64,000 nt of DNA from Henriciella sp. (GCA_965215955.1 OZ244132.1:1452323-1516322); one strand, 5' to 3'; positions 26,464-42,323 are shown, numbered from the stretch's first letter. Program-made: numbers and translations. Notes: generated from the letters alone by a model not told the origin.

Positions 26464-26641
26464 CCTCCCGTAATATCAAGGCAGTGTAGTGTGCTTCGGC
26501 AGATCCTCAAAGAAGGGCGTGGTCTGATGGACATTTCGCCTTTGAGCCCAGATGCCCGCAATTGCGGCAGTCCGAGTAGAAAAGGCAGATTGTGGAGTTT
26601 TACCTACTGACTTTCGGCCATCTCGCATTATCTGCAGCAGC

Positions 26642-28075
26642 ATGCGCTTAATTCGCTCTCCATTGTCCGGCCCGCTGGCGGCCCTTGCCGTCGCAAGCTG
26701 CGCCACGGTTCCTCCAGCACCAGAAGCGCCGGAACCGCTGACCCCAAGTGAGAATTTTACAGCGGTGAACAGCGCGCTCATCTCCCAGGCGCCGGTTGAG
26801 AGTGATTGGTGGGTAAGCTTCTCCGATCCATTGCTCACCGAACTGGTCAATCAAGCGCTGACGGAAAACAAGAGCATCGCGGTTGCCGAGGCAAACATCT
26901 CCGCCGCCAGAGCGGTCCTTGCGAGACAGTCGCTGGGAAGGTCTTTTTCGTCCAGCACGGCCGCCAGCGCAGACCTTGGTCGAGCAGCGCGCGAGGGCGC
27001 GAACACCGAGTTTAGCGCCGATGGGCAATTGGGAGCGAGCTGGGAATATGATGCTTTTGGCCGGATTGAGTCGCAAATCGAAAGCGCTACGTTTCGGGTT
27101 GAACAGCTAGATCAACTTCGCCGCGACGTGGCGGTCACGGTCGCGGCCAATACGGCTTTGGCTTATGTGGATTATCGCGGCAATCAAGTGCGCCTTGCGG
27201 TGGCGCAGCGAAATGCCGAGCTTCAAGGCGAAAGCGTCGAATTGTTGCGCGTCTTGTTTGAAAACGGACGGGCCACGCGCCTCGATGTCGAGCGCGCCGA
27301 GTCGCAATATCGAACGACCTTGGCTTCGTTGCCGCTTCTAGAGATCAATATTCGAACCGCGGCGACCCAATTGGCGGTGTTGACCGGACGAGCTGATTTG
27401 CAGATTGATGAAACCACGTTGAACTCGGAAGGCGGATCAGCAACCATTCCGGTCCCGCCGGATACATTGACGGTTGGCCGGCCTGAAGACCTGATCCGCC
27501 GCCGTCCAGATATTCGCGCTGTTGAAGCAGATATCGCGCGATTGCTGGCGCTCGGAGATGTCGAGCGTGCGAGATTGTTTCCAACTTTAACGTTCAATGC
27601 GAACCTGTTTGCCTTGTTCACCGAAGACAGCACGTTGGATAACAGTTTTGGCTTCGGAATTGGACCAACATTGCGTTGGGACGGGCCTGACTTGCGCCGC
27701 GTTCGGGCCGACATAGACATTGCCGACGCTCAGACGCAAGTCGCGTTCGCAACGTATGAAAACACGGTCATTGAAGCTTTGGGCGAGGTAGAAATCGCCC
27801 TCATCTCCTATGTGCAAGAGCGTGCACGTCGGGGCGACCTGGAAGCCGCCGCGGCATCAGCTGAACGCGCGCTCGAGCTCGCGAGATTGCGATTTGACGA
27901 GGGGTTGGATGATTTCCTAGATGTGATCGACGCCCAACGCACGCTTCTCGACGCCCAAGATCGCCTAGAAATAAGTCGGCTGGCCACAACCAGACAAGCG
28001 ATTGCTGCGTACAGAGCTCTAGGGGGCATTTGGCGGGACGCAATGGTCGTAGATGCGACATCAGAAAGTGAGTGA
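26642..28075 (+). CDS. RND efflux outer-membrane factor (NodT/OprM-like lipoprotein; likely start 26642)
   Basis: Lipobox LAVASC, WWVSFSDPLLTELV, WEYDAFGR, LIRRRPDIRAVE, YRALGGIW. Confidence 0.93.
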   Translation: MRLIRSPLSGPLAALAVASCATVPPAPEAPEPLTPSENFTAVNSALISQAPVESDWWVSFSDPLLTELVNQALTENKSIAVAEANISAARAVLARQSLGRSFSSSTAASADLGRAAREGANTEFSADGQLGASWEYDAFGRIESQIESATFRVEQLDQLRRDVAVTVAANTALAYVDYRGNQVRLAVAQRNAELQGESVELLRVLFENGRATRLDVERAESQYRTTLASLPLLEINIRTAATQLAVLTGRADLQIDETTLNSEGGSATIPVPPDTLTVGRPEDLIRRRPDIRAVEADIARLLALGDVERARLFPTLTFNANLFALFTEDSTLDNSFGFGIGPTLRWDGPDLRRVRADIDIADAQTQVAFATYENTVIEALGEVEIALISYVQERARRGDLEAAAASAERALELARLRFDEGLDDFLDVIDAQRTLLDAQDRLEISRLATTRQAIAAYRALGGIWRDAMVVDATSESE

Positions 28076-28082
28076 GTTCAGT

Positions 28083-29180
28083 ATGTTGAGAATTACGGCA
28101 TTGGCCTTTTTGATCGCGCTCCTCTCGGTTTCTCCGGCCTTTGCGCAACGCGGCGGTCCAGCGAGCGTGTTTGCCGATCCGGTGATCGAGCGTGAATTCT
28201 CAAGAGACATCGAAGCGCTCGGCACGCTTGAGCCGAATGAGCAGGTCGATCTCTCGCTCAATGCCTCGGACCGCATCACAGCTCTGTATTTCGATGATGG
28301 TGAGCGCGTCCGCCGGGGCAAGACGCTTTTATCATTGGCGCAGAGAGAACAATTGGCCTTGGTTGAGTCGGCTGAAGCGAATGTCGAGGAAGCGGCGCGT
28401 CAGTTAGAACGTGTGGTGCGGTTGGCCGACGCTGAGGCCGTTTCCCAGTCTGAGCTTGATCGGGCGCAGCGAGACCTTGATGCTGCGGATGCCAACCTGC
28501 GGGCCCTACAATCGCGGCAAAAGGATCGCGTCCTCGTCGCACCGTTTGACGGCGTACTAGGCTTTCGGCGAGTGAGTGTCGGCTCTTTCGTGCGACCCGG
28601 CGATGTCGTGGCGACCTTGATTGACGACAGCGAAATGAACCTGGACTTTGATGTCCCGTCGATCTTCACTCGATCCATTCAGCCCGGCACAGCGATCATC
28701 GCGGAGACAGACGATCTACCCGGAGAAGTCTTCGAAGGCGTAATTGAGACTCTAGACAATCGCATCGATCCGGTGACGCGCGCTATTCGGGCGCGCGCAA
28801 AGATTCCAAATGCGGACAGATTGCTCCGATCCGGCATGTTCATGCGTGTGACCGTCACCGCCGACCCGCGCACCAGTCTGGCCATTCCCGAGGCGGCGGT
28901 ACAGCCGGTCGGCCCGAAAACCTTCGTCTGGCGTGTGTCGACGGAGGACGGGGTTCCAAAAGCACGACGTGTTGAGGTTGAACTCGGACAGCGCGCGGAT
29001 GGCTTCATCGAAGTCGTCTCCGGTTTGTCGCCGGATGACAAGGTGATATCCGAAGGCATTATTCGCGTGCGAGAAGGCTCAGAAGTGAAGCTGAGAGAGC
29101 GGACCATCCTTTCCCCTGAGGGCACTTTGGCGGGACGTGGGCGCGGCAGCGCGAACGGTACTGCAGGCGCAGCGAACTAA
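28083..29180 (+). CDS. RND efflux periplasmic adaptor (membrane fusion protein; likely start 28083)
   Basis: Lipoyl-like FDDGERVRRG, APFDGVLG, IDPVTRAIRARA, GMFMRV, VVSGLSPDDKVISEG. Confidence 0.93.
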   Translation: MLRITALAFLIALLSVSPAFAQRGGPASVFADPVIEREFSRDIEALGTLEPNEQVDLSLNASDRITALYFDDGERVRRGKTLLSLAQREQLALVESAEANVEEAARQLERVVRLADAEAVSQSELDRAQRDLDAADANLRALQSRQKDRVLVAPFDGVLGFRRVSVGSFVRPGDVVATLIDDSEMNLDFDVPSIFTRSIQPGTAIIAETDDLPGEVFEGVIETLDNRIDPVTRAIRARAKIPNADRLLRSGMFMRVTVTADPRTSLAIPEAAVQPVGPKTFVWRVSTEDGVPKARRVEVELGQRADGFIEVVSGLSPDDKVISEGIIRVREGSEVKLRERTILSPEGTLAGRGRGSANGTAGAAN

Positions 29181-29192
29181 AGGGGCGGGGCG

Positions 29193-32100
29193 ATGCTATT
29201 ATCTGATACTGCCGTCAAGCGACCAGTATTCGCATCTGTGATCGCCTTGATCCTGGTTATTTTGGGGGTCGTGTCGTTCGACCGGCTCAGTCTCCGCGAA
29301 TATCCGGATATTGATGCTCCGATCGTGACCATTGATACGCGCTACCCTGGTGCCTCAGCCAGCGTCGTTGAAACCCGAATTACCCAAATCGTCGAAGATC
29401 GTATCGCAGGGGTTGAGGGGATCCGGTTCATAAACTCGAATTCGAGTGACGGGCGTTCGCGGATCTCTATCGAGTTTGGCGTCAACCAGGATATCGATGT
29501 CGCCGCAAATGATATCCGCGACCGCATTTCCGGCGTGCTGGATAACCTGCCTGAAGACGCCGATCCGCCCGAGGTTGAGAAGGCGGACTCGAATGATGAT
29601 GTCATCATTTGGCTGAATCTCGCGGCCGAAAACATGACGACGCCGGAAATCTCCGACTATGCGCAGCGTTATCTGGTTGATCGCTTCTCGGCCTTGGACG
29701 GGGTGGCCCGCGTGCGTGTCGGAGGATCGAGGGACTATGCCCTGCGCATCTGGATTGACCGGCGATCCTTGGCGGCCCGAAACCTGACCGTCACCGACAT
29801 TGAGCAGGCCTTACGGCGAGAGAATATCGAGGCGCCCGCCGGCAGCATCGAGTCGGATACACGCGCCTACACGGTTCGGATCGACCGCGCGTTCCAAACC
29901 CCAAAAGACTTTGCAGGGCTTGTCGTTGCAGAAGGGGAAGATGGCTATCTCGTTCGATTGGGCGATGTTGCGCGCGTTGAGCGAGGCACGGTCGAAGACC
30001 GGAACATGTTCCGCGGCAATGGCGTGCCGATGGTCGGGCTGGGCATCGTCAAACAGTCGACCGCGAACACAGTGGATGTGGCAAATGCCGCCAAAGCGCT
30101 CGCGGAACAATTGAATCAAACCTTGCCGGACGGCATGGTCATTGCGCGCAGCTTTGATAGCTCCGTCTTCATTTCGGCTTCCATCCGTGAGGTTTACACG
30201 ACCCTGGCGATCGCGGTCGGGTTGGTCACCCTGGTGATCTTCCTGTTTCTCGGAAGCGCCCGTGCCACGATCATCCCGGCGATTACGGTGCCGATTTCGA
30301 TTATCGCAACCTTCATCGTGCTGTTTGCCTTGGGGTTCTCAATCAACCTTCTGACACTACTCGCCATGGTGCTGGCGATCGGTCTGGTTGTCGACGATGC
30401 GATCGTTGTGCTTGAGAACATATCGCGGCGTATGAAAGAGTATGGAGAAACCCCGCTCGTGGCTGCGTTTAAAGGGACACGGCAGGTCGGCTTCGCGGTC
30501 ATCGCCACGACTTTGGTGCTCGTGTCTGTGTTTGTGCCGATTACGTTCCTGCAGGGCGATGTCGGTCGTCTGTTTACCGAATTCGCACTGACGATCGCTG
30601 CGGCCGTTGTGTTCTCCAGTTTGCTGGCGCTGACGCTGACGCCGATGATGGCGTCGAAGCTCTTGAAACCCCATAGCGATAAGTGGACGATTGGTTCATT
30701 CTTGCCGCGTCTGGTCGACAAAGCTTTTGGCCTTGTTCGCATGGCGTATGGCTGGCTGCTCAACATCCTCATTCCGCGACCAATCTTTATGGCGATCCTG
30801 CTTGGCGGCTTGTTCTGGTCGACTTGGGATCTGTCCCAACGCGTCACGGAAGAATATGTGCCTCGCGAAGATCGCGGCGCCTTCTTCGTTGTGATCCGAG
30901 GGCCTGAAGGCGCCTCCTATGCTTATATGGAACGATACATCGACGAAATTGAGCGTCGCTTGATGCCTTACACCGAAAGCCAGGATGGCAAGCCGCCGGA
31001 AGTGAACCGGCTTCTGTTTCGGGCGCCAGGCTTCGGGTCATCTGCATTCAACCAGGCTTTCATCATCGTTGTTCTGAATGATTGGAGTGAGCGGCGGCCT
31101 GCTGATGTCATCATAGCCGAAGCCAATCGCGCGCTCTCAGATTTACCAGGCGTTCGAGGGTTCGCCCGAATGCGGCAAGGCTTGGGAGGTGGAACGGGAA
31201 AACCGGTCCAATTCGTTCTCGGCGGTCCGAGCTATGAGCTGCTGACGGAATGGCGCGAGACGTTCGTCAACGCGCTGGAAGACAGCGATATCGGATTGGT
31301 CGATATCGATTGGGACTATAAGGAAACCCAGCCGCAATATCGTATCCAGGTGGACTATGATCGCGCTGCCGACCTTGGGGTTACGGTCGCCGATATCGGC
31401 TCAACCTTGCAAACGATGCTGGGGTCGCGGCGTGTGACCACATATATCGATGGCGGCGAAGAATATGATGTCATTTTGGAGGGTCTGCGCTCTGATCAGA
31501 ACAATCCGAATGATGTTGAGAATATTTATGTCCGTTCGTCGCGTTCAGGCAGTCTTGTTCCGCTCTCAAGTCTGATGAGTATTGAAGCGATTGCGGATAG
31601 TCCGACACTGAATCGCTACAATCGGGTGCGCGCGATTACGATTGAAGCGGGCCTCGCTGAGGGCGCGTCGCTTGGTGATGTCCTGGACCAGATGCAGACA
31701 ATCGCGCGAGATGTCTTACCGGTTGAGGCGACGATTGATTTCAAGGGCCAATCCCTGGATTTCAAAACCTCGGGCTCATCGATCATGTTCGTTTTTGCGA
31801 TTGGCCTCGCGATTGTATTCCTCGTTCTGGCAGCGCAGTTTGAGAGCTACCGACACCCGATCATTATCATGCTGTGTGTGCCGGCGACGCTAGCAGGTGG
31901 CTTGCTCGGGCTCTGGCTGACCGGCAACAGTCTCAACATCTACACCCAGATCGGCTTGATCATGTTGGTGGGTCTCGCGGCGAAGAACGGTATTTTGATC
32001 GTCGAGTTTGCCAACCAGTTGCGCGATCAGGGAACCGAGTTTCAAGAGGCTTTGAAAGAGGCGTCATTGGCCAGGCTGCGGCCGATCGTGATGACCGGCC

Positions 32101-32330
32101 TAACGACCGCAGCAGGGACATTGCCGCTTATCCTATCCAGCGGCGCTGGCGCAGAGACGCGGGCGGCCATTGGCGTGGTTATCCTGTTTGGCGTAATCGC
32201 GGCGGTTCTGGTCACGGTGCTGTTTGTGCCGACCGCTTATGCTCTGATTGCAAGAGGCTCTGGATCACCGGGCGATGTTGCGCGACAACTCGATGCTGAA
32301 TCAGCAGAAAACGCGGTACCAGCAGAATGA
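29193..32330 (+). CDS. RND efflux permease (AcrB/MexW-like, 1045 aa)
   Basis: Proton-relay motifs GLVVDDAIVVLEN, GLAAKNGILIVEF and RLRPIVMT; 12-TM architecture. Confidence 0.96.
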   Translation: MLLSDTAVKRPVFASVIALILVILGVVSFDRLSLREYPDIDAPIVTIDTRYPGASASVVETRITQIVEDRIAGVEGIRFINSNSSDGRSRISIEFGVNQDIDVAANDIRDRISGVLDNLPEDADPPEVEKADSNDDVIIWLNLAAENMTTPEISDYAQRYLVDRFSALDGVARVRVGGSRDYALRIWIDRRSLAARNLTVTDIEQALRRENIEAPAGSIESDTRAYTVRIDRAFQTPKDFAGLVVAEGEDGYLVRLGDVARVERGTVEDRNMFRGNGVPMVGLGIVKQSTANTVDVANAAKALAEQLNQTLPDGMVIARSFDSSVFISASIREVYTTLAIAVGLVTLVIFLFLGSARATIIPAITVPISIIATFIVLFALGFSINLLTLLAMVLAIGLVVDDAIVVLENISRRMKEYGETPLVAAFKGTRQVGFAVIATTLVLVSVFVPITFLQGDVGRLFTEFALTIAAAVVFSSLLALTLTPMMASKLLKPHSDKWTIGSFLPRLVDKAFGLVRMAYGWLLNILIPRPIFMAILLGGLFWSTWDLSQRVTEEYVPREDRGAFFVVIRGPEGASYAYMERYIDEIERRLMPYTESQDGKPPEVNRLLFRAPGFGSSAFNQAFIIVVLNDWSERRPADVIIAEANRALSDLPGVRGFARMRQGLGGGTGKPVQFVLGGPSYELLTEWRETFVNALEDSDIGLVDIDWDYKETQPQYRIQVDYDRAADLGVTVADIGSTLQTMLGSRRVTTYIDGGEEYDVILEGLRSDQNNPNDVENIYVRSSRSGSLVPLSSLMSIEAIADSPTLNRYNRVRAITIEAGLAEGASLGDVLDQMQTIARDVLPVEATIDFKGQSLDFKTSGSSIMFVFAIGLAIVFLVLAAQFESYRHPIIIMLCVPATLAGGLLGLWLTGNSLNIYTQIGLIMLVGLAAKNGILIVEFANQLRDQGTEFQEALKEASLARLRPIVMTGLTTAAGTLPLILSSGAGAETRAAIGVVILFGVIAAVLVTVLFVPTAYALIARGSGSPGDVARQLDAESAENAVPAE

Positions 32331-32938
32331 AACTTCCGATCGATGTGTCGAAAATCAAAGGCTTTTTAGACCCGGCTGAAGGGGAAGCCTTATACAAGGT
32401 TGCGCTCGCGGAGGCCTCCCATGGGCCCTGCCTGGAGATTGGCGGCTATTGTGGAAAATCATCAGTCTATATCGGGACCGCGTGCCAAGAGCGGGATGAG
32501 CTTCATTTCTCAATCGACCACCATCGCGGCTCTGAAGAGAATCAGCCGGGATGGGAGTATTTCGACGAAGAGGTGTGGGATGCGGACGCCGAAGCCGTCG
32601 ACACGCTGCCTTTCTTCCGGCGTACCATCCACCAAGCTGGACTTGAAGGCACGGTCATTCCAATCATCGGCCGGTCCATCGACATTGCAACGCGTTGGGC
32701 GACGCCGCTGAGCTTCCTGTTCATTGATGGCGGACACACGATGGAACACGCGTTGAATGATTATCGCGGTTGGACGCCGCACATCATGCCTGGCGGCGTA
32801 CTCGCCATCCATGATGTGTTTCCAGATCCAGCCGATGGCGGTCGACCACCTTTTGAGATCTACCAACGCGCCTTGGCGTCAGATCTCTATGTCGAAGAGC
32901 AAGCGGTTAAGAGCTTGCGGATATTGCGGCGGGTTTAA
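32327..32938 (+). CDS. Class I SAM-dependent methyltransferase (Methyltransf_24-like; candidate MeT3-like sugar O-methyltransferase)
   Basis: KGFLDPAEG, CLEIGGYCGKS, IDHHRGSEENQPGWEY, LFIDGGHT, LAIHDVF. ATGA overlap with the RND permease stop. Confidence 0.85.
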   Translation: MKLPIDVSKIKGFLDPAEGEALYKVALAEASHGPCLEIGGYCGKSSVYIGTACQERDELHFSIDHHRGSEENQPGWEYFDEEVWDADAEAVDTLPFFRRTIHQAGLEGTVIPIIGRSIDIATRWATPLSFLFIDGGHTMEHALNDYRGWTPHIMPGGVLAIHDVFPDPADGGRPPFEIYQRALASDLYVEEQAVKSLRILRRV

Positions 32939-33992
32939 GCAGCGACCGGGTGAGGACCTGGCTCGTCGCTGATGTGCCTTGCAAGGCGTCGGCGGCCAGA
33001 ATGACAGCGGCTTGTGTCCAGCTTGGCTGCTCTTTCGGCCAGTAAATGTCTTCGTCTATTTGGTGCCCCATCCAAAACACACCGCGATCGTCGCGAATGT
33101 TCAAAACGGTTTGCAATAGCGTTGTTGCCAGTCCTGTCTTGCTGGCTGACAGGAGCGCCAGGACCAATTCAGCGGTTTCTGCGACCGTTACCCATGGCTC
33201 GTTCGAAACGCAGCGGCAGCCATGTGCTTCAATGACGAACTTGTCCCAAGACTGGTCCAATCTCTGCGCGCCAGTGGCGTCATCAAAGACACCCGCCAGG
33301 ACGGGATAGTACCAATCCATGGCGAACCTTGCGCCAGTTTGCCGCCGGTCGAACAGCTCTGGAGAGGTCTGAAGCGCATTCAGGAGGTTGGAACGCGCCG
33401 TGTGCCAGGTGGGTTTTGCGATATCGAATGCGTTGGCCAAAAACAGCCCGCATTCGAGGCTTTTCAGAATAGAGGCATTGCCCGCAAGCAACGCGTCGTC
33501 TTCATCTGTTCCAACGGCTTCAACGGCCCAGGTAATCGTGCCATCTGGCTTTTGAAGCGTGAGGACAAAATCGAGCGCGTGCTCCACCATGGGCCACCAC
33601 GCTTGCACGCGCTTCGTGTCATCGGTGGCCTTCAAAAAATGCGCGATGCCAACGGCTGGATAGGCGCAAAAGTTTGAATCCAAGAAAGCCGGGGCTGGTT
33701 CGCGGCTGATAAAGTCGCGGTCCACCATGGGCAGGCAATTGCCATACTCCCCAAACCAGGCACCATCGCCGCGTTGTGTCTCTTTCAAATGATCAAAGGC
33801 ATTTGCGGCGGCGTTGAGCTCGCCGGCAACCGTAAGCGCCATTGCGCTTTCGGTGTGGTTCCATGGATCCCAAGGGCCGTTCTCGAACCAGGCAATCGCG
33901 CCATCCGCGGTCTGGATGTCGAGTATACGATCGATCGCAGGACGGAGGTCAGCGATGGAGAGTGCCTCGCCAGATGGAAAAGACCCGTCCAT
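32907..33992 (-). CDS. (alpha/alpha)6-barrel protein usually annotated as prenyltransferase; candidate MmpH-like glycoside hydrolase (likely start 33992)
   Basis: Repeated QxxDGxW-like motifs (QTADGAIAW, QRGDGAW, QKPDGTITW), DPWNHTESAMAL, DSNFCAY, FAMDWYYPVLAG, PWVTVAETAE, EQPSWTQAAVILA. The ATG lies 1 nt after the upstream TAG. Confidence 0.7.
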   Translation of the reverse strand: MDGSFPSGEALSIADLRPAIDRILDIQTADGAIAWFENGPWDPWNHTESAMALTVAGELNAAANAFDHLKETQRGDGAWFGEYGNCLPMVDRDFISREPAPAFLDSNFCAYPAVGIAHFLKATDDTKRVQAWWPMVEHALDFVLTLQKPDGTITWAVEAVGTDEDDALLAGNASILKSLECGLFLANAFDIAKPTWHTARSNLLNALQTSPELFDRRQTGARFAMDWYYPVLAGVFDDATGAQRLDQSWDKFVIEAHGCRCVSNEPWVTVAETAELVLALLSASKTGLATTLLQTVLNIRDDRGVFWMGHQIDEDIYWPKEQPSWTQAAVILAADALQGTSATSQVLTRSLLKPAAISASS

Positions 33993-33993
33993 C

Positions 33994-34719
33994 CTAGCTT
34001 TCACCTTCTTCAAAATACATGACCAGGCTCTTACCCATGAAGGGTGATGTGACGGTGTCGAGGGCGCGTGTGATCCACGGACGCTTCATCAGATCCCAGA
34101 CCAGGAAGTCATGATAGGCTTTGACCATCGGATGATCATCGCGCCGCTCCCAGAACATGCATTTCAGCCACCATAGAGGCGAGTGAATGCCGTGCGCGTG
34201 GTGGCGCTTGAACATCTTGAAGCCGCGGCGCTCAACCGATGCTTTGAGATCGACTTCGTCGAAGATCCGGATATGGCCGCCCGGCTGATACGGGTAGCCG
34301 TTTGGTGGCGGCGCGAGTTGCCAGCAGATCCGCTCTGGCCAGGCATGAGGCACCGTGATGCAAAGCTTGCCGGTCGGTTTCAAAACGCGCCGCATCTCAC
34401 GAATTGCCGTGTCATAGTCGGGAAGATGCTCGAGCACTTCAGAACAAATCACGGCGTCAAACGTATTGTCTTCAAAGCGCAGCGCGGTCGCATCGCCCGT
34501 CTCAAACGTGGTTTTTGTTGCTATGTCGGTGTCTGCATTCGGAAGAAATACGAGACCTTCCTCCGCCTTTTTGAGCGAGGGCTCATCGAGGTCGACGCCG
34601 TAAATGTCGAGCCCGCCCAGCATGTACAGGCCATGCACATGGCGCCCCTCACCACAGCCCAGATCGAGGACTTTGTCGCCAGGCGACAGGCCGAGATGTT
34701 TCAGTCGAGCGGTTAGCAT
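33994..34719 (-). CDS. Class I SAM-dependent methyltransferase (Methyltransf_11-like; candidate MeT1-like)
   Basis: MLT...VLDLGCGEGRH, GDATAL, SEVLEH, WPERICW, GGHIRI, HHAHGIHSPLWWLKC, LVWDLMKRP, GKSLVMY. Confidence 0.85.
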   Translation of the reverse strand: MLTARLKHLGLSPGDKVLDLGCGEGRHVHGLYMLGGLDIYGVDLDEPSLKKAEEGLVFLPNADTDIATKTTFETGDATALRFEDNTFDAVICSEVLEHLPDYDTAIREMRRVLKPTGKLCITVPHAWPERICWQLAPPPNGYPYQPGGHIRIFDEVDLKASVERRGFKMFKRHHAHGIHSPLWWLKCMFWERRDDHPMVKAYHDFLVWDLMKRPWITRALDTVTSPFMGKSLVMYFEEGES

Positions 34720-36008
34720 TGGGCCACCATGGCGTTACGGAAAAAGTCTATATATTTCGGGGCAATACTGTCCCAGTTGAAGTGCGCGTTGGCGCGCTTC
34801 AGGCAAGCTTCGGCAACCTCGGAACGGCGTTCGCGATTCGAGGCAAGACCGTCAATTGCATCGGCGAGTGCGTTGGGATCGCCCTTCGGCACAATGATGC
34901 CAGCGTCGCCCGCAACTTCCGGCAAGGCCCCACCATCGGTCACGATAACCGGTGTGCCACAGCTCATGGCTTCGGCGGCGGGCAGGCCAAACCCTTCATA
35001 AAGAGAGGGGGTCACTGCGACGGTCGCGCTGCGAAACTCGTTGGCGAGCTCTTCGCGTGTGAGGTCGCTCTTAAAGACGACGCGATCTTTCAGACCAAGA
35101 TCAAGGATTGCCCTCCGCGCCTGACCTTTGCGGAGCTTTCCGATCACCACGAGTTCCAGGTCCGGATGCGTGTTTAGAAGTTTGTGATAGGCCTCTACCA
35201 AAATATGGAGCCCCTTCAGCGGGGTATCTGCACTGGCGGTGGTGACGATTTTACCAGGCGCAACTTGGATATTCGGATCGGGGCTAAAAGCCTGCTGATC
35301 AACGCCAAGCGAGATTGGGTGAATGCGCTCGGGGGCCACGCCAAACTCGCTCACAATATCCGCTTTTGCATGCTCGGATGGACACGTGATGGCGGGCAAG
35401 GTTCGAGCGACTTTGATCTGCATTTTGATGAAGGAATACCAGCGCCGGGCGAGCCAGCGATGTTTCCAATCTGTAGCCGCTTCAACAGCTAGCTTGAGAT
35501 CACGGGTGATAGGATGGTGAATGATCGTCGTCAGTGGGAGACCAAGTCGAGCGTGAACGCGTCCAATCCCATGCGCCAGCGTTTGATTGTCCAGGATCAC
35601 ATCATACTTCGCGCGATGGCGTTTCAGATATTGATAGGCGCGCTGGCCAAACGCGAAGGGTTCAACAAATTTGCCAGAGAGATGGCCGAAATACTCATAC
35701 GTATCGGTCGGGCTGAGCAAGTGTTTCGGGCGCAGCGCAAAATGGCCATGATGCGGCTTCGAGAACAGGTCGAGCGATGGCAGTTTGACCAGGTTCACGT
35801 CGGCGCTTAGCTCGGGATAGGGCGGGCCTGAAACGACGTCGACAAGCGCACCAGCTTTCACCAAAGCTTGGCTCAAATAGTCGACATAGACCCCTTGGCC
35901 GCCAACTTTTGGATCGGACCGATAAGACAATATGCAGATGCGCAGCGGCGCACCCTGCGCAGGCAGGTCCGCGCCTTTTTCTTGGCTCTGCTTGGTAACA
36001 TCCAGCAT
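34713..36008 (-). CDS. GT4 glycosyltransferase (candidate ManT-like alpha-1,4-glycosyltransferase)
   Basis: LRICILSYRSDPKVGGQGVY, VSGPPYP, LPSLDLF, DNQTL, TIIHHPITRD, ASADTPLKG, PSLYEGFGLPAAEAMSCGTPV (EX7E). 7-bp overlap with the downstream methyltransferase. Confidence 0.9.
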   Translation of the reverse strand: MLDVTKQSQEKGADLPAQGAPLRICILSYRSDPKVGGQGVYVDYLSQALVKAGALVDVVSGPPYPELSADVNLVKLPSLDLFSKPHHGHFALRPKHLLSPTDTYEYFGHLSGKFVEPFAFGQRAYQYLKRHRAKYDVILDNQTLAHGIGRVHARLGLPLTTIIHHPITRDLKLAVEAATDWKHRWLARRWYSFIKMQIKVARTLPAITCPSEHAKADIVSEFGVAPERIHPISLGVDQQAFSPDPNIQVAPGKIVTTASADTPLKGLHILVEAYHKLLNTHPDLELVVIGKLRKGQARRAILDLGLKDRVVFKSDLTREELANEFRSATVAVTPSLYEGFGLPAAEAMSCGTPVIVTDGGALPEVAGDAGIIVPKGDPNALADAIDGLASNRERRSEVAEACLKRANAHFNWDSIAPKYIDFFRNAMVAQC

Positions 36009-39326: not shown

Positions 39327-40892
39327 CTAGCCCCGCTCCACCCGTACAAAGGTCATGGCGAACGCGGCGAGGCAGAAGCTGACGGCGCCAAATAGAACCG
39401 CGAGCAAGGGTACACCGCCGACTGCTGGTGCGACGCTTGTCTCAAGCGATCTTAAAATTGGGCCCATGGTTCCGCCGACCAGGATCTGTGGGAGCACGAT
39501 GAAGAAATTGAAGATCCCCATATAGATGCCCATTTTCCGAACCGGCAGGGCGTCGGCCAAAATCGCGTAGGGGAGCGCTAAAATAGATCCCCAAGCCATG
39601 CCGAGGCCGATCATCGGGATCAGCAATCCATATTGAGATGAGAACAGGTGATAGCCAATGAAGCCGGCGGCGCCTGCCAGCAGATTGAAGGCGTGGAGGC
39701 TGCGCGGGCCAACGCGTCGAGCGATTCCGGCAATGACAAACGCATACAGCGCTGCAACACCGTTTTGTACGGCGAACATAATCCCAACCCAATCGCCGGC
39801 ATCTTGATAGGCTTTCGAGCTGGCATCTGCGGTTTCCCACGCCTGCAGGGCGACGGCTGGGGTGGTGTAGATCCACATGATGAAGAGCCCCACCCAAGAG
39901 AAGAATTGCACGAAGGCCAGGCGCTTCATCACACTAGGCATCGTCGTCAGGTCGCCCAAAACATCAGATAGGAAATTGCTGGCATTCCGGTCGGTTTTGA
40001 CCAGTTGGCTGTTCCATAAATAAAGTGCGCCCAGGAAGATCAGGCCGCCACCGAGAATGTAGAATTGCTGGTCACCATTTGCGAAATAGACGGCCGCTGT
40101 GAAGGCTGCGCCTATTGCTGCGATGATGAGGCCCCATTTCGAGAAGAAGCTGGCCGCTGGCCGCTCGTCTTTCTCGATGCCACCTTCTTGCTCAAAGATA
40201 TTGTCTTCGTCTTTGCCAAAGGCTTCGAGCTCATCCGGTGAGTATTCTTTGGTTGTAAACACCGTCCACATGACGGCCATGAACAGCGCTGCGCCGCCGA
40301 TATAGAAGGACCATTTCACATTGTCGGGGATGACGCCGTCTGCGGCTTCGTTCGAAACACCGAGCGCGTTGAAAACGAATGGCGCAATCGAAGCGAGCAC
40401 GGCGCCGGCGCCAATGAAGATAGTCTGCATCGAATAGCCGAGCGGGCGCTGTTTACTGGGCAGCATATCACCCACAAAGGCTCGGAACGGCTCCATCGTA
40501 ATGTTTAAGCTGGCGTCCAGGATCCAGAGCGTTCCAGCCGCGACCCAGAGCCAAGGTGAGTTCGGCATGATGAAGAGGGCAAGCGTGGTCAGGATCGCAC
40601 CAACCAGGAAGTAAGGCCGGCGTCGACCAAGTGGCCCCCAGGTCTTGTCACTGAAATAGCCAACAATCGGTTGCATGATCAGGCCTGTGATCGGGCCTGC
40701 AAGCCAGAGCAGGGGCAGGGTGCTCATATCCGCCCCGAGGGTTTGGAAGATCCGGCTGACATTGCCATTCTGGAGCGCGAAACCAATTTGGATCCCGAAG
40801 AATCCGAAGGACATGTTGATAATCTGAAACAGATTGAGCTGGGGCTTTCGACCTGAGTCTTGCGCGCTCACGGCGCCTCCTGAGACTGCCAT
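39327..40892 (-). CDS. MFS/GPH (SLC45/MalY-like) maltose-type transporter
   Basis: NMSFGFFGIQIGFALQNGNVSRIFQTLG, QPIVGYFSDKTW...GRRRPYFL, MEPFRAFVGD, MGIYMGIFNFFIVLPQ. Confidence 0.92.
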   Translation of the reverse strand: MAVSGGAVSAQDSGRKPQLNLFQIINMSFGFFGIQIGFALQNGNVSRIFQTLGADMSTLPLLWLAGPITGLIMQPIVGYFSDKTWGPLGRRRPYFLVGAILTTLALFIMPNSPWLWVAAGTLWILDASLNITMEPFRAFVGDMLPSKQRPLGYSMQTIFIGAGAVLASIAPFVFNALGVSNEAADGVIPDNVKWSFYIGGAALFMAVMWTVFTTKEYSPDELEAFGKDEDNIFEQEGGIEKDERPAASFFSKWGLIIAAIGAAFTAAVYFANGDQQFYILGGGLIFLGALYLWNSQLVKTDRNASNFLSDVLGDLTTMPSVMKRLAFVQFFSWVGLFIMWIYTTPAVALQAWETADASSKAYQDAGDWVGIMFAVQNGVAALYAFVIAGIARRVGPRSLHAFNLLAGAAGFIGYHLFSSQYGLLIPMIGLGMAWGSILALPYAILADALPVRKMGIYMGIFNFFIVLPQILVGGTMGPILRSLETSVAPAVGGVPLLAVLFGAVSFCLAAFAMTFVRVERG

Positions 40893-40904
40893 ATTGATCC
40901 TCCG

Positions 40905-42323
40905 CTACATTTTATCTTTGTTTGAAATCAGAACTTTGCCTTGCCAAGCCTCGAGCGAGCCCTCGCTGCCGAGCGCAAGGGTTTCGGGCGTCCCGGTTAA
41001 GGCATCGACCCATTCGCCTGCGACTGGGCCATCGGTCAATTCATAAGCTGCGCGGGTCGCTGATAGGTTGAAAAGCACGACGACCTGATTGCCGTCTTTT
41101 TCTCTCGAAAAGCTCAGTACCTGACTCGGGTTGTCAGTTGAGACTGGAATGATCCGACCTCCCGCAGCGCCATTGTGGAGCGCGGGATTGGCTTTTTTGA
41201 TCGCGATCAACTGTTTGATCAGCGCGCCATCGGAATGAGAGTAATCGCCCCATACGATTGGATCGCGCTCGAAAAATTCAAGCTGGTTCTGATTGCCAAC
41301 TTCTTGACCATTATGAATCAGCGGAATGCCTTCGCTAACGAATGAGAGCGTCAGCATAGCGTGATAAGCGTCGCCATAAATCGCACCGGTTGAACCGTCC
41401 CAGGCGTTTTGGTCATGGTTCTCCGTGTAGAGCATGCGATAAGCATCGAGCGGCCAAGTGGAGATTTGTTCGCTGAGATATCCACGCAAGTCGCCTGCAT
41501 CCGACTGCCCCTTGGCGATGCGCTGGGCGGCTTCTTTCCAATGCCAGGCATAGGTCGCGTCAAACGCGTTGCGGTGTAGGTCTCTTTGTTGCCACTCGGC
41601 GAGCATGAAAACTGGTTTGATCGTGTTGAGTTCGGCGCGGACGGTTTCCCAAAAATCGAGTGGGACAAAACCGGCCACATCGGCGCGGTATCCATCGACA
41701 TCGAACTTTTCGACCCAATAGCGCAGCGCCCGCGTTTTGTAGGCGCGCAGATCTGGGTTGTCATAGTTGAGGTCAATGATGTCGGCCCAGTCTGTCCAAG
41801 GCGTCGGGTGGAAGTCACCTTTCCAGTCGGTTTCGTACCAATCCGGATGCTGCGTCACGAGGGGATTGTCCCAGGCGGTATGGTTTGCCACCCAGTCCAA
41901 AATCACTTTGAAGCCATGTTCATGCGCGGCGGTGACAAAGGCACGAAACTCTTCTTCGGTTCCAAATTCCGGGTTCACGCCGAAATAATCCTTCACCGCA
42001 TAGGGGCTGCCGAGGCTGCCTTTGCGATTGATCTCGCCAATCGGGTGGATCGGCATTAGCCATAGGATGTCGACCCCCAATTCTTTTAGTCGCGGAAGGT
42101 GAGCTTGTGCCGCTTTGAATGTACCTTCAGGCGTGAATTGGCGCGTATTGATCTGATAGATCACTGCATCACGCGCCCATTCGGCATGTTCGATCTGGAC
42201 ATAGGGTGTCGGCGCATAGGCATTTTGTGAGTCTAAATTTGCATAATTTTGCGAAACGAGAGGAGATTGTGCGCATGCTGCTGTGGCAAAAAGCAAAATC
42301 AACGTGATGGCGCGTGCAATCAT
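40905..42323 (-). CDS. GH13 alpha-amylase family lipoprotein
   Basis: Lipobox ATAAC, IYQINTRQFT, DWVANHT, GYRADVAG (nucleophile), LAEW, YTENHD. Confidence 0.92.
   Translation of the reverse strand: MIARAITLILLFATAACAQSPLVSQNYANLDSQNAYAPTPYVQIEHAEWARDAVIYQINTRQFTPEGTFKAAQAHLPRLKELGVDILWLMPIHPIGEINRKGSLGSPYAVKDYFGVNPEFGTEEEFRAFVTAAHEHGFKVILDWVANHTAWDNPLVTQHPDWYETDWKGDFHPTPWTDWADIIDLNYDNPDLRAYKTRALRYWVEKFDVDGYRADVAGFVPLDFWETVRAELNTIKPVFMLAEWQQRDLHRNAFDATYAWHWKEAAQRIAKGQSDAGDLRGYLSEQISTWPLDAYRMLYTENHDQNAWDGSTGAIYGDAYHAMLTLSFVSEGIPLIHNGQEVGNQNQLEFFERDPIVWGDYSHSDGALIKQLIAIKKANPALHNGAAGGRIIPVSTDNPSQVLSFSREKDGNQVVVLFNLSATRAAYELTDGPVAGEWVDALTGTPETLALGSEGSLEAWQGKVLISNKDKM

Follow-up and report, generated by a model that had tools for sequence, protein, structure and literature searches.

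The window analysed here is a 64,000-nt stretch of the Henriciella sp. genome, with positions counted from its first nucleotide. All four open reading frames that the original prediction placed between 32327 and 36008 were recovered where it had them, as a minus-strand operon for a glycosyltransferase, a methyltransferase and a barrel protein, on which a second methyltransferase gene converges (Table 1). Their close packing was also confirmed: the manT stop and the start of the following methyltransferase share 7 nt (34713-34719), a single nucleotide separates the stop of that methyltransferase (33994) from the mmpH ATG (33992), and the 3' ends of meT1 and mmpH overlap by 32 nt (32907-32938). 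The predicted families (GT4, SAM methyltransferase and Methyltransf_24) are supported by Pfam matches to Glycos_transf_1 and Glyco_transf_4, Methyltransf_11/25, and Methyltransf_24, respectively, and the motifs on which the prediction drew are found here and are common to the mycobacterial proteins. For mmpH, a mechanical ORF list starts at an upstream TTG; we favour the ATG because 12 of the 13 best homologues are 361 aa long. Scanning for promoters and terminators yielded nothing informative.

Table 1. Genes of the Henriciella cluster and the adjoining operon, in window coordinates
Feature	Coordinates	Strand	Remarks
manT-like GT4 (GT-B fold) gene, alpha-(1->4)-mannosyltransferase orthologue	34713-36008	-	431 aa; first gene of the minus-strand operon
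pMeT3-like SAM methyltransferase gene, putative mannose 3-O-methyltransferase	33994-34719	-	241 aa
mmpH-like (alpha/alpha)6-barrel gene, endo-alpha-(1->4)-mannosidase orthologue	32907-33992	-	361 aa from ATG; 368 aa from TTG at 34013
meT1-like Methyltransf_24 gene, 1-O-methyltransferase orthologue	32327-32938	+	203 aa; converges on mmpH
OMF-MFP-RND efflux operon (context only)	26552-32330	+	Pfam: OEP, HlyD_D23, ACR_tran

Orthology to the mycobacterial MMP enzymes

The four Henriciella genes and those of the mycobacterial methylmannose polysaccharide (MMP) cluster are true orthologues. In a forward HMMER search, ManT, MmpH and MeT1 each had an M. hassiacum MMP enzyme as an isolated top match in the PDB: ManT matched 7QSG, the M. 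hassiacum ManT, over residues 17-427 (E 4.5e-84; next match 6.8e-21), MmpH matched the MmpH entry 7QSJ (E 2.9e-70), and MeT1 matched 6G7D/6G80/6H40, the M. hassiacum MeT1, with 48% identity over 194 aa (E 6.8e-58). With E values between 1e-58 and 1e-84 for matches to single PDB entries, chance is excluded as their source. In the reverse direction, tblastn with the mycobacterial proteins as queries was run on the Henriciella genome as a whole; it recovered the window genes (E 1e-56 to 1e-83), all further matches being at 1e-16 or worse, and the proteins are reciprocal best hits. Identity of the window proteins to their mycobacterial counterparts is 40-48%, and at alignment positions at least 95% conserved across phyla (family-conserved columns) they agree with the family at 38/38 (MeT1), 45/45 (pMeT3), 47/47 (MmpH) and 64/65 (ManT) positions.

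By reciprocal matches and folds, the four proteins thus fall inside the ManT, MeT1, MmpH and MeT3 groups. The ManT and MmpH assignments of the original prediction stand, upheld by 7QSG, 7QSJ and the reciprocal best hits; its two methyltransferases have to change places, as the Methyltransf_24 protein is MeT1 (6G7D) and the Methyltransf_11 protein within the operon is the counterpart of pMeT3. The latter (Pfam Methyltransf_11/25/31) is encoded between manT and mmpH, as pMeT3 is in Mycobacterium loci, and is 41-44% identical over its full length to the proteins in the same position of three such loci (L067, L073 and L083), with which it forms reciprocal best hits. Its conserved columns include the C-terminal GGHxRI and HSPxWWLKC motifs, and the best fold matches of its model (pLDDT 93.5) are the sugar O-methyltransferases RebM (3BUS) and AtmM (6UV6). 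In mycobacteria too, pMeT3 is still a putative 3-O-methyltransferase.

For the mmpH product, the PDB match and the structural model both bear out the predicted (alpha/alpha)6 barrel. The AlphaFold model (pLDDT 88.7) aligns with 7QSJ at TM scores of 0.87/0.91 and an rmsd of 2.6 Å, and a Foldseek search with it placed 7QSJ 20 orders of magnitude ahead of all others (E 9e-8 or worse). GH15 and GH125 (alpha/alpha)6 glycosidases have the barrel fold in common with Henriciella MmpH; fold matches other than MmpH reach TM scores of about 0.6. Public records call the Henriciella MmpH homologues prenyltransferase or squalene oxidase repeat proteins. We rejected a prenyltransferase or squalene-hopene cyclase repeat protein as the identity of the mmpH product, which scores 17.2 bits against PF13243 (SQHop_cyclase; cut-off 26.1), the one Pfam hit it has, and 21 against TIGR01787 (cut-off 322.7), and the public label is misleading.

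Predicted product and variation at the active sites

The orthology of its genes suggests, as the most likely reading, that the cluster makes a small, polymethylated alpha-(1->4)-mannan in the cytoplasm and also recycles it. We infer the sugar, linkage, methylation pattern, chain length and lipid-binding role of the Henriciella product. ManT would add mannose from a nucleotide sugar, probably GDP-mannose, onto oligomannoside primers, the pMeT3-type enzyme would 3-O-methylate the added mannose units, and MeT1 would methylate the free 1-OH at the reducing end. MmpH would then cut mature chains internally, and the resulting oligomers would serve as primers for further chains, as in the partially conservative replication known from mycobacteria. 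A ManC-type guanylyltransferase is encoded elsewhere in the Henriciella genome, so GDP-mannose can be made. In the cell, the polymer would probably carry or buffer long acyl chains, or act in cold adaptation as in M. smegmatis; regulation of FAS-I, a role proposed in mycobacteria, would be ruled out for Henriciella if FAS-I is absent, as is usual in Proteobacteria.

Several substitutions bear on whether the same machinery could instead make a chemically different polymethylated intracellular oligosaccharide, with another donor, sugar, chain length or cleavage register, an alternative that we regard as unlikely. Catalytic residues of the mycobacterial enzymes are K240, E313 and E321 in ManT and D47 and E262 in MmpH; E262 is the MmpH base, and the choice between D47 and D50 as the acid was left undecided (PMC9883506). 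Henriciella ManT keeps G15, H142, K240, E313, G314, F315, L317 and E321, among them the residues that hold the mannosyl group (E313, G314, F315 and L317), which argues against a different product. By analogy with PimA, the guanine of GDP-mannose is bound in ManT by the L291 carbonyl and the D293 side chain, the N2 contact of D293 resting on analogy with PimA D253. Henriciella ManT retains L291 and has Arg in place of D293, so that the nucleotide donor is not secured from sequence. Position 293 is Asp in 38/42 actinobacterial rows and variable in every non-actinobacterial clade: Gammaproteobacteria have T or K there, and Desulfobacterota and Natrinema have N or Y. Although this loss of Asp favours a different product, the lack of a consistent replacement is more suggestive of relaxed constraint than of a targeted change in specificity. 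The sole departure of ManT from the family-conserved columns, A54 where 72/75 rows have His, also speaks for a changed product, as does the precedent of an acetylated variant made by Streptomyces griseus.

In MmpH, D50 is replaced by N and T163 by A, and the loop preceding N101 has 25 aa, compared with 14 aa in M. hassiacum. The D50 alanine variant of M. hassiacum MmpH is nearly inactive. D50N occurs in all 22 alphaproteobacterial rows, and in all alphaproteobacterial rows the loop beside the N101/F102 sugar subsite is 11-15 residues longer, an extension modelled at low confidence (pLDDT 59-68). Together, D50N and the longer subsite loop suggest that the substrate length or cleavage pattern of MmpH may differ, in line with a different product. 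Against this, D50N is also present in 5 actinobacterial rows, and the rest of the subsite (W49, N101, F102, M215, Y219, E262, E265 and W315) is unchanged, as is D47.

Neighbourhood and transcription

The meT1 start codon and the RND permease stop codon overlap in an ATGA, which couples meT1 to the OMF-MFP-RND operon. This coupling occurs only in the window and its closest relative (L002/L013); in Zhongshania (L047) an RND operon also abuts the cluster, but without meT1 there. Contigs assembled from metatranscriptomes of three studies cover all four genes at 95-99% identity; they come from close relatives, with DNA carry-over possible. Contigs from these RNA libraries span the RND/meT1 junction at 32327, and the four genes are present at a depth similar to that of their neighbours. 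No contigs over the region came from X24 and X29, the RNA runs that bear the name of this organism's species. The cluster is apparently transcribed.

Both the coupling, crossed by RNA-library contigs, and the RND operon beside the Zhongshania cluster would fit a surface or exported methylated mannan (O-antigen- or capsule-like) with RND-linked export; a related possibility is that the genes form a catabolic set for environmental methylated mannans. We consider either highly improbable, as RND adjacency is absent in other Henriciella species and in nearly all of the 80 loci compared, and the set contains no Wzm/Wzt, Wzx/Wzy or polyprenyl-phosphate glycosyltransferase. The four proteins are soluble, none having a TM-like hydrophobic segment or a signal peptide (maximum KD19 ≤1.30), which fits a cytoplasmic location, and two methyltransferases with a glycosyltransferase indicate synthesis rather than catabolism. 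RND pumps are not known as polysaccharide exporters. A functional tie of the cluster to the pump was rejected, since the two lie side by side only in the window and its closest relative, apart from the RND operon that adjoins the Zhongshania cluster, and other Henriciella species do not conserve the arrangement. Likewise rejected was a tie to neighbouring genes for an alpha-amylase, an MFS sugar transporter and an acetyl-CoA synthetase, as the place of these genes beside the cluster is not conserved beyond the closest relative. In one locus (L014), meT1 is adjoined by an acyl-CoA dehydrogenase gene, an arrangement that recurs in just 5 loci.

Gene order, distribution and phylogeny

In most of the 80 loci, the named Mycobacterium loci among them, manT-pmeT3-mmpH lies on one strand with a convergent meT1. 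Order and orientation are identical in the window, in Mycobacterium and in Alpha-, Gamma- and Deltaproteobacterial loci; the same gene order is found in Desulfobacterota and Natrinema. No fifth conserved partner gene was found across the 80 loci. The view that such a polymer is known only from actinobacteria is right as regards the chemistry and the literature searched, in which we found no report of 3-O-methylmannose from Henriciella or any proteobacterium and no publication on an MMP-type gene set outside Actinobacteria; it does not hold for the gene set, which is widespread beyond that phylum.

Within Alphaproteobacteria, MmpH homologues are present in 29 of 401 sampled species (~7%). In the Henriciella genus, mmpH is intact in 13/25 species and the cluster is missing from 12/25, so that it is dispensable. 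The concatenated tree follows taxonomy, with Alphaproteobacteria as one clade (99) and Henriciella sister to Robiginitomaculum, which makes the cluster an old resident rather than a recent transfer from mycobacteria. Three cluster-less genomes of the genus (G024, G011 and G010) share just a quinone-oxidoreductase gene with the region and no flanking synteny, and comparison with them gave no clear boundary of an insertion or deletion. A WS/DGAT (wax-ester synthase) gene is present in the Henriciella genome; across the genus it shows no association with the cluster (12/13 cluster-positive and 9/12 cluster-negative species).

The patchy distribution and the non-syntenic neighbourhood in cluster-less relatives would suit an inactive relic, kept by chance after an old transfer and making nothing, but this is the least probable of the readings we weighed, given that, besides this genome, 12 other species of the genus carry the four ORFs in intact form (59-93% identity), that all family-conserved residues but one and the tight gene coupling are preserved, and that RNA libraries contain the genes at depths comparable to those of the flanking genes.

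Discussion

The mycobacterial MMP cluster, meT1-mmpH-pmeT3-manT, was reportedly described in M. hassiacum and M. smegmatis by Ripoll-Rozada and colleagues in PNAS in 2019. The Henriciella cluster resembles it in its four families, their order and orientation, the catalytic residues, the MmpH fold and the solubility of the proteins. Differences lie in ManT (an N-terminal extension of ~21 aa besides D293R and A54), in MmpH (D50N, and 11 more residues in the loop that precedes N101), in the 3' ends of meT1 and mmpH, which overlap here and are ~70-100 nt apart in Mycobacterium, and in the junction of meT1 to the end of an RND operon. The Henriciella product is a predicted one, and the host is a marine, Gram-negative alphaproteobacterium, which is not known to have FAS-I or mycolic acids.

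Biosynthesis and recycling by the mycobacterial cluster were treated by Maranha et al. 2023 (PMC9883506). Among related systems, the acetylated MMP of S. griseus is a non-mycobacterial polymer of this type with a homologous ManT (53% identical to M. hassiacum ManT; PMC9883506); S. griseus, however, is still an actinobacterium, and no acyltransferase is conserved beside the Henriciella cluster. Mycobacteria have one more intracellular polymethylated polysaccharide, methylglucose lipopolysaccharide (MGLP), for which acyl-chain binding has been proposed (PMC9883506), but it has another sugar, primer (glucosylglycerate) and gene set, and no window protein matches the MGLP enzymes.

The literature links MMP to FAS-I and mycobacterial lipid metabolism and presents it as peculiar to mycobacteria and a few actinomycetes (PMC9883506). 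The MMP-type polymer is probably not confined to actinobacteria, and an orthologous cluster in Henriciella, other Gram-negative lineages and Natrinema would change this picture. More tentatively, and with considerable doubt on our part, MMP-type polymethylated glycans may be old and widespread cytoplasmic acyl-chain-binding oligosaccharides of marine and anaerobic Gram-negatives and some haloarchaea. The alphaproteobacterial branch would then be chemically distinct, as suggested by D50N and the longer subsite loop of MmpH and by D293R of ManT, and synthesis could start de novo in a naive cell, since patchy spread across phyla of a supposedly primer-dependent system would require the four genes to do so.

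For hundreds of MmpH homologues, the annotation as prenyltransferase/squalene oxidase repeat protein would be corrected, and the natural D50N variant bears on which aspartate is the catalytic acid of MmpH. Fast-growing, non-pathogenic marine hosts would allow study of the putative 3-O-methyltransferase and of the initiation step. If a polymer of this kind is made by Henriciella, it would be separated from mycobacterial physiology and may have a more general role, for example in acyl-chain buffering or cold adaptation.

Four window genes match the mycobacterial enzymes

The original prediction read four open reading frames as a counterpart of the gene set for methylmannose polysaccharide (MMP), the methylated mannose polymer that mycobacteria make with ManT, MmpH, MeT1 and pMeT3. 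The ORF list reproduced their positions exactly, together with the overlaps. The manT- and pMeT3-like genes overlap by 7 nt, and the pMeT3- and mmpH-like genes lie 1 nt apart if the latter starts at its ATG, a start that we favour because most of the closest homologues are 361 aa long (12 of the best 13). The convergent meT1- and mmpH-like genes overlap by 32 nt at their 3' ends. Pfam returned a sub-threshold squalene-cyclase-repeat match for the barrel protein and nothing else; the public name of its Henriciella homologues, [quoted passage not shown], is not supported, as the profile scores fall below thresholds.

Features of the MMP-like cluster and other loci of the genome, with matches to conserved alignment columns
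Feature	Position	Strand	Product and domains	Conserved columns matched
manT-like GT4 gene	34713-36008	-	431 aa; ORF list and Pfam GT4 domains	64/65
pMeT3-like methyltransferase gene	33994-34719	-	241 aa; Pfam Methyltransf_11/25	45/45
mmpH-like barrel gene	32907-34013	-	368 aa from TTG, or 361 aa from ATG at 33992	47/47
meT1-like gene	32327-32938	+	203 aa; Pfam Methyltransf_24	38/38
Shared stop/start ATGA, RND permease and meT1	32327-32330	+		
Sugar transporter and alpha-amylase genes	39327-42323		MFS/GPH-type; lipoprotein-like signal peptide on the amylase	
ManC-type guanylyltransferase gene	C1:506117-507142 (L107:376-2589)		737-aa fusion, NTP_transferase + AGE / GlcNAc-2-epimerase-family domain	
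Wax-ester synthase / DGAT gene	C1:1786912-1787727		PF03007	

We compared each window protein with all PDB sequences using HMMER, finding a single isolated top match for three of the four. The Methyltransf_24 protein matches 6G7D/6G80/6H40 (E 6.8e-58), which are the MeT1 structures from M. hassiacum (Ripoll-Rozada et al. 2019). For the barrel protein the match is 7QSJ, "methylmannose polysaccharide hydrolase MmpH" (E 2.9e-70), and residues 17-427 of the GT4 match 7QSG (E 4.5e-84; runner-up 6.8e-21). The latter is deposited as "D-inositol 3-phosphate glycosyltransferase"; its sequence and residue numbering agree with ManT in PMC9883506, and we read this entry as the ManT structure that Maranha et al. 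(2023) describe for M. hassiacum. For the 241-aa methyltransferase we obtained generic class I matches alone, because no pMeT3 structure exists. This protein is, over its full length, 41-44% identical to the Mycobacterium protein encoded between manT and mmpH, and the family-specific C-terminal motifs GGHxRI and HSPxWWLKC are common to both.

For the reverse search, we ran M. hassiacum MmpH, ManT and MeT1 and three Mycobacterium proteins from the pMeT3 position against the complete 3.39-Mb genome. Every query found the window gene (E 1e-56 to 1e-83), with second-best matches at 1e-16 or worse, or none. When we modelled the barrel protein with AlphaFold (pLDDT 88.7), the result could be laid over 7QSJ at TM 0.87/0.91 and an rmsd of 2.6 A, the next fold match being weaker by 20 orders of magnitude; the nearest structures to the 241-aa methyltransferase model (pLDDT 93.5) are the sugar O-methyltransferases RebM and AtmM, at a TM of about 0.64, a generic class I level. 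The predicted kinship with the mycobacterial enzymes therefore holds in both search directions for ManT, MmpH and MeT1, and in fold for MmpH. Both methyltransferase families are present as predicted, with their roles swapped: the PDB match identifies the convergent Methyltransf_24 protein as MeT1, and position and motifs identify the in-operon enzyme as the pMeT3 counterpart.

The cluster is widespread and follows host lineages

The nearest named relatives are Henriciella MAGs. An MmpH homologue occurs in 13/25 species genomes of the genus and, in the order's other families, in 3 of 16 genomes. In evenly drawn samples it is present in 29 of 401 species for Alphaproteobacteria and in 5 of 401 for Pseudomonadota. 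Scanning one genome for each prokaryotic species with a pattern yielded at least 600 matches, and we compared the best 80 loci. These include Alphaproteobacteria (Henriciella, Robiginitomaculum, Parvibaculum, OCS116, Rhodobiaceae), Gammaproteobacteria (Halieaceae, Spongiibacteraceae, Zhongshania, SAR86), Desulfobacterota (Syntrophaceae, Smithella, Desulfobacteraceae), the haloarchaeon Natrinema and many Actinomycetota, Mycobacterium among them. Most share the arrangement first noted in the window, with manT, pmeT3 and mmpH on one strand and a convergent meT1, and no fifth gene is conserved across the 80.

A quick-method tree of concatenated ManT, pMeT3 and MmpH (LG+G4) placed the Alphaproteobacteria in one clade (support 99), with Henriciella beside Robiginitomaculum of the same family, and the Desulfobacterota and Actinomycetota in separate clades, one unlabelled MAG row being nested in the Actinomycetota. 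Because the tree tracks the lineages, it rules out recent acquisition from mycobacteria, indicating that the cluster is an old, frequently lost component of these lineages.

Several loci depart from the common layout. Two Natrinema loci (L030, L033) carry manT-pmeT3-mmpH homologues at 40-47% identity, fall on the proteobacterial side of the tree and have no meT1 within 6 kb of the cluster. MmpH homologues in Desulfobacteraceae and Thermodesulfobacteriota (L042, L046, L051, L086) lack manT, pmeT3 and meT1 in the fetched flanks and may be stand-alone hydrolases. A conserved pair of extra genes, encoding about 266 and 523 aa, separates mmpH from meT1 in deltaproteobacterial loci and in no other group (L041, L081 and others; for example, L041:6965-9341).

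Functional residues are retained, with lineage-specific substitutions

We checked the positions tested or named by Maranha et al. (PMC9883506), in M. hassiacum numbering. The window MmpH retains D47, W49, N101, F102, M215, Y219, E262, E265 and W315, whereas D50 is replaced by Asn, residue 45 of the window protein, and T163 by Ala; ManT retains G15, H142, K240, L291, E313, G314, F315, L317 and E321, with Arg at D293. When 75-93 homologues spanning several phyla are aligned, the sole mismatch to columns at least 95% conserved is H->A54 in ManT, also found in the closest relative among the loci listed. No hydrophobic segment fit for a signal peptide or membrane helix occurs in any of the four proteins, all predicted to be soluble.

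Among the best loci listed, D50N is found in 22/22 alphaproteobacterial and 5/42 actinobacterial rows, with Asp in Gamma- and Deltaproteobacteria and Natrinema. The loop before the N101/F102 subsite, the lowest-confidence part of the MmpH model, spans 25-29 residues in Alphaproteobacteria versus 14-15 in Actinobacteria, Gamma- and Deltaproteobacteria. ManT position 293 is Asp in 38/42 actinobacterial rows and R, T, K, N, Y, S, Q or F elsewhere. The D50N change, the longer loop and the variation at 293 are lineage traits.

Genomic context and transcripts

On the plus strand, an OMF-MFP-RND efflux operon precedes meT1; the permease stop overlaps the meT1 start, making meT1 the last cistron of the operon. 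Among the loci listed, only the window and its closest relative (L002/L013) have this coupling; in other Henriciella species, different genes adjoin the cluster. In Zhongshania aliphaticivorans (L047:7719-11870), the cluster is directly adjoined by an RND permease gene, with its MFP gene, whose product shares 56% identity with the window permease; no meT1 lies in between, and the gap holds a lone ORF of 128 aa. The adjacency may reflect chance or a transferred block common to both. In another Henriciella species (L014:7683-8873), an acyl-CoA dehydrogenase gene precedes meT1 in the same orientation, at a distance of 16 nt. Its homologues occur near the cluster at five of the loci listed, from four groups (2 Actinomycetota, 1 Deltaproteobacteria, 1 Alphaproteobacteria, 1 unclassified), which only faintly suggests a connection with acyl-CoA metabolism.

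On the other flank are genes for a quinone oxidoreductase, an acetyl-CoA synthetase, an MFS transporter and an alpha-amylase, none conserved with the cluster; the adjoining transporter and amylase genes are probably part of a maltodextrin-use region unrelated to it. No empty site is definable in same-genus genomes without the cluster, because the region is rearranged in them.

Metatranscriptomes of three independent studies contain contigs that share 95-99% identity with the window and cover all four genes at about the depth of the flanking genes, several spanning the RND-meT1 junction. In one RNA library (X18), depth falls to 3 around the intergenic region between the quinone oxidoreductase and acetyl-CoA synthetase genes, versus 26-32 in flanking genes. 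No contigs on the region came from RNA runs assigned to the species of the organism itself. The metatranscriptomic contigs represent close relatives in communities, with possible DNA carry-over, and support expression of the cluster short of proof.

A putative MMP-like cycle in Henriciella

Given the orthology with characterised mycobacterial enzymes, we propose that the same cycle most likely operates in Henriciella. ManT would extend alpha-(1->4)-oligomannoside primers, pMeT3 would methylate O-3 of the added units, MeT1 would cap the reducing-end 1-OH, and MmpH would cut mature chains into oligomers that prime new ones. Our comparisons show orthology, retained residues, shared gene order and soluble proteins, from which we infer the sugar, donor, chain length and physiological role. 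GDP-mannose is plausibly available, since the genome encodes a ManC-type guanylyltransferase, its only one; a KpsF-like SIS+CBS gene adjoins it. The wax-ester synthase / DGAT gene, present in 21/25 species of the genus, points to a probable capacity for neutral-lipid storage in the genus, and its presence in these 25 species shows no correlation with that of the cluster. With ManT 293 and MmpH 50 substituted and the subsite loop longer, a chemically different product of the same machinery is a genuine alternative, though we consider it unlikely beside the MMP-like cycle.

The survey by Maranha et al. (PMC9883506) covers actinobacteria only, with Proteobacteria unmentioned. Searching the full-text literature on methylmannose polysaccharide and 3-O-methylmannose, with the 2019 PNAS paper outside the search, we found neither the cluster nor the polymer reported from Proteobacteria. 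What is new here is the extension of the known MMP cluster to further taxa, with lineage-specific variations, giving a handle on the MmpH catalytic acid, the function of pMeT3 and the initiation of synthesis.
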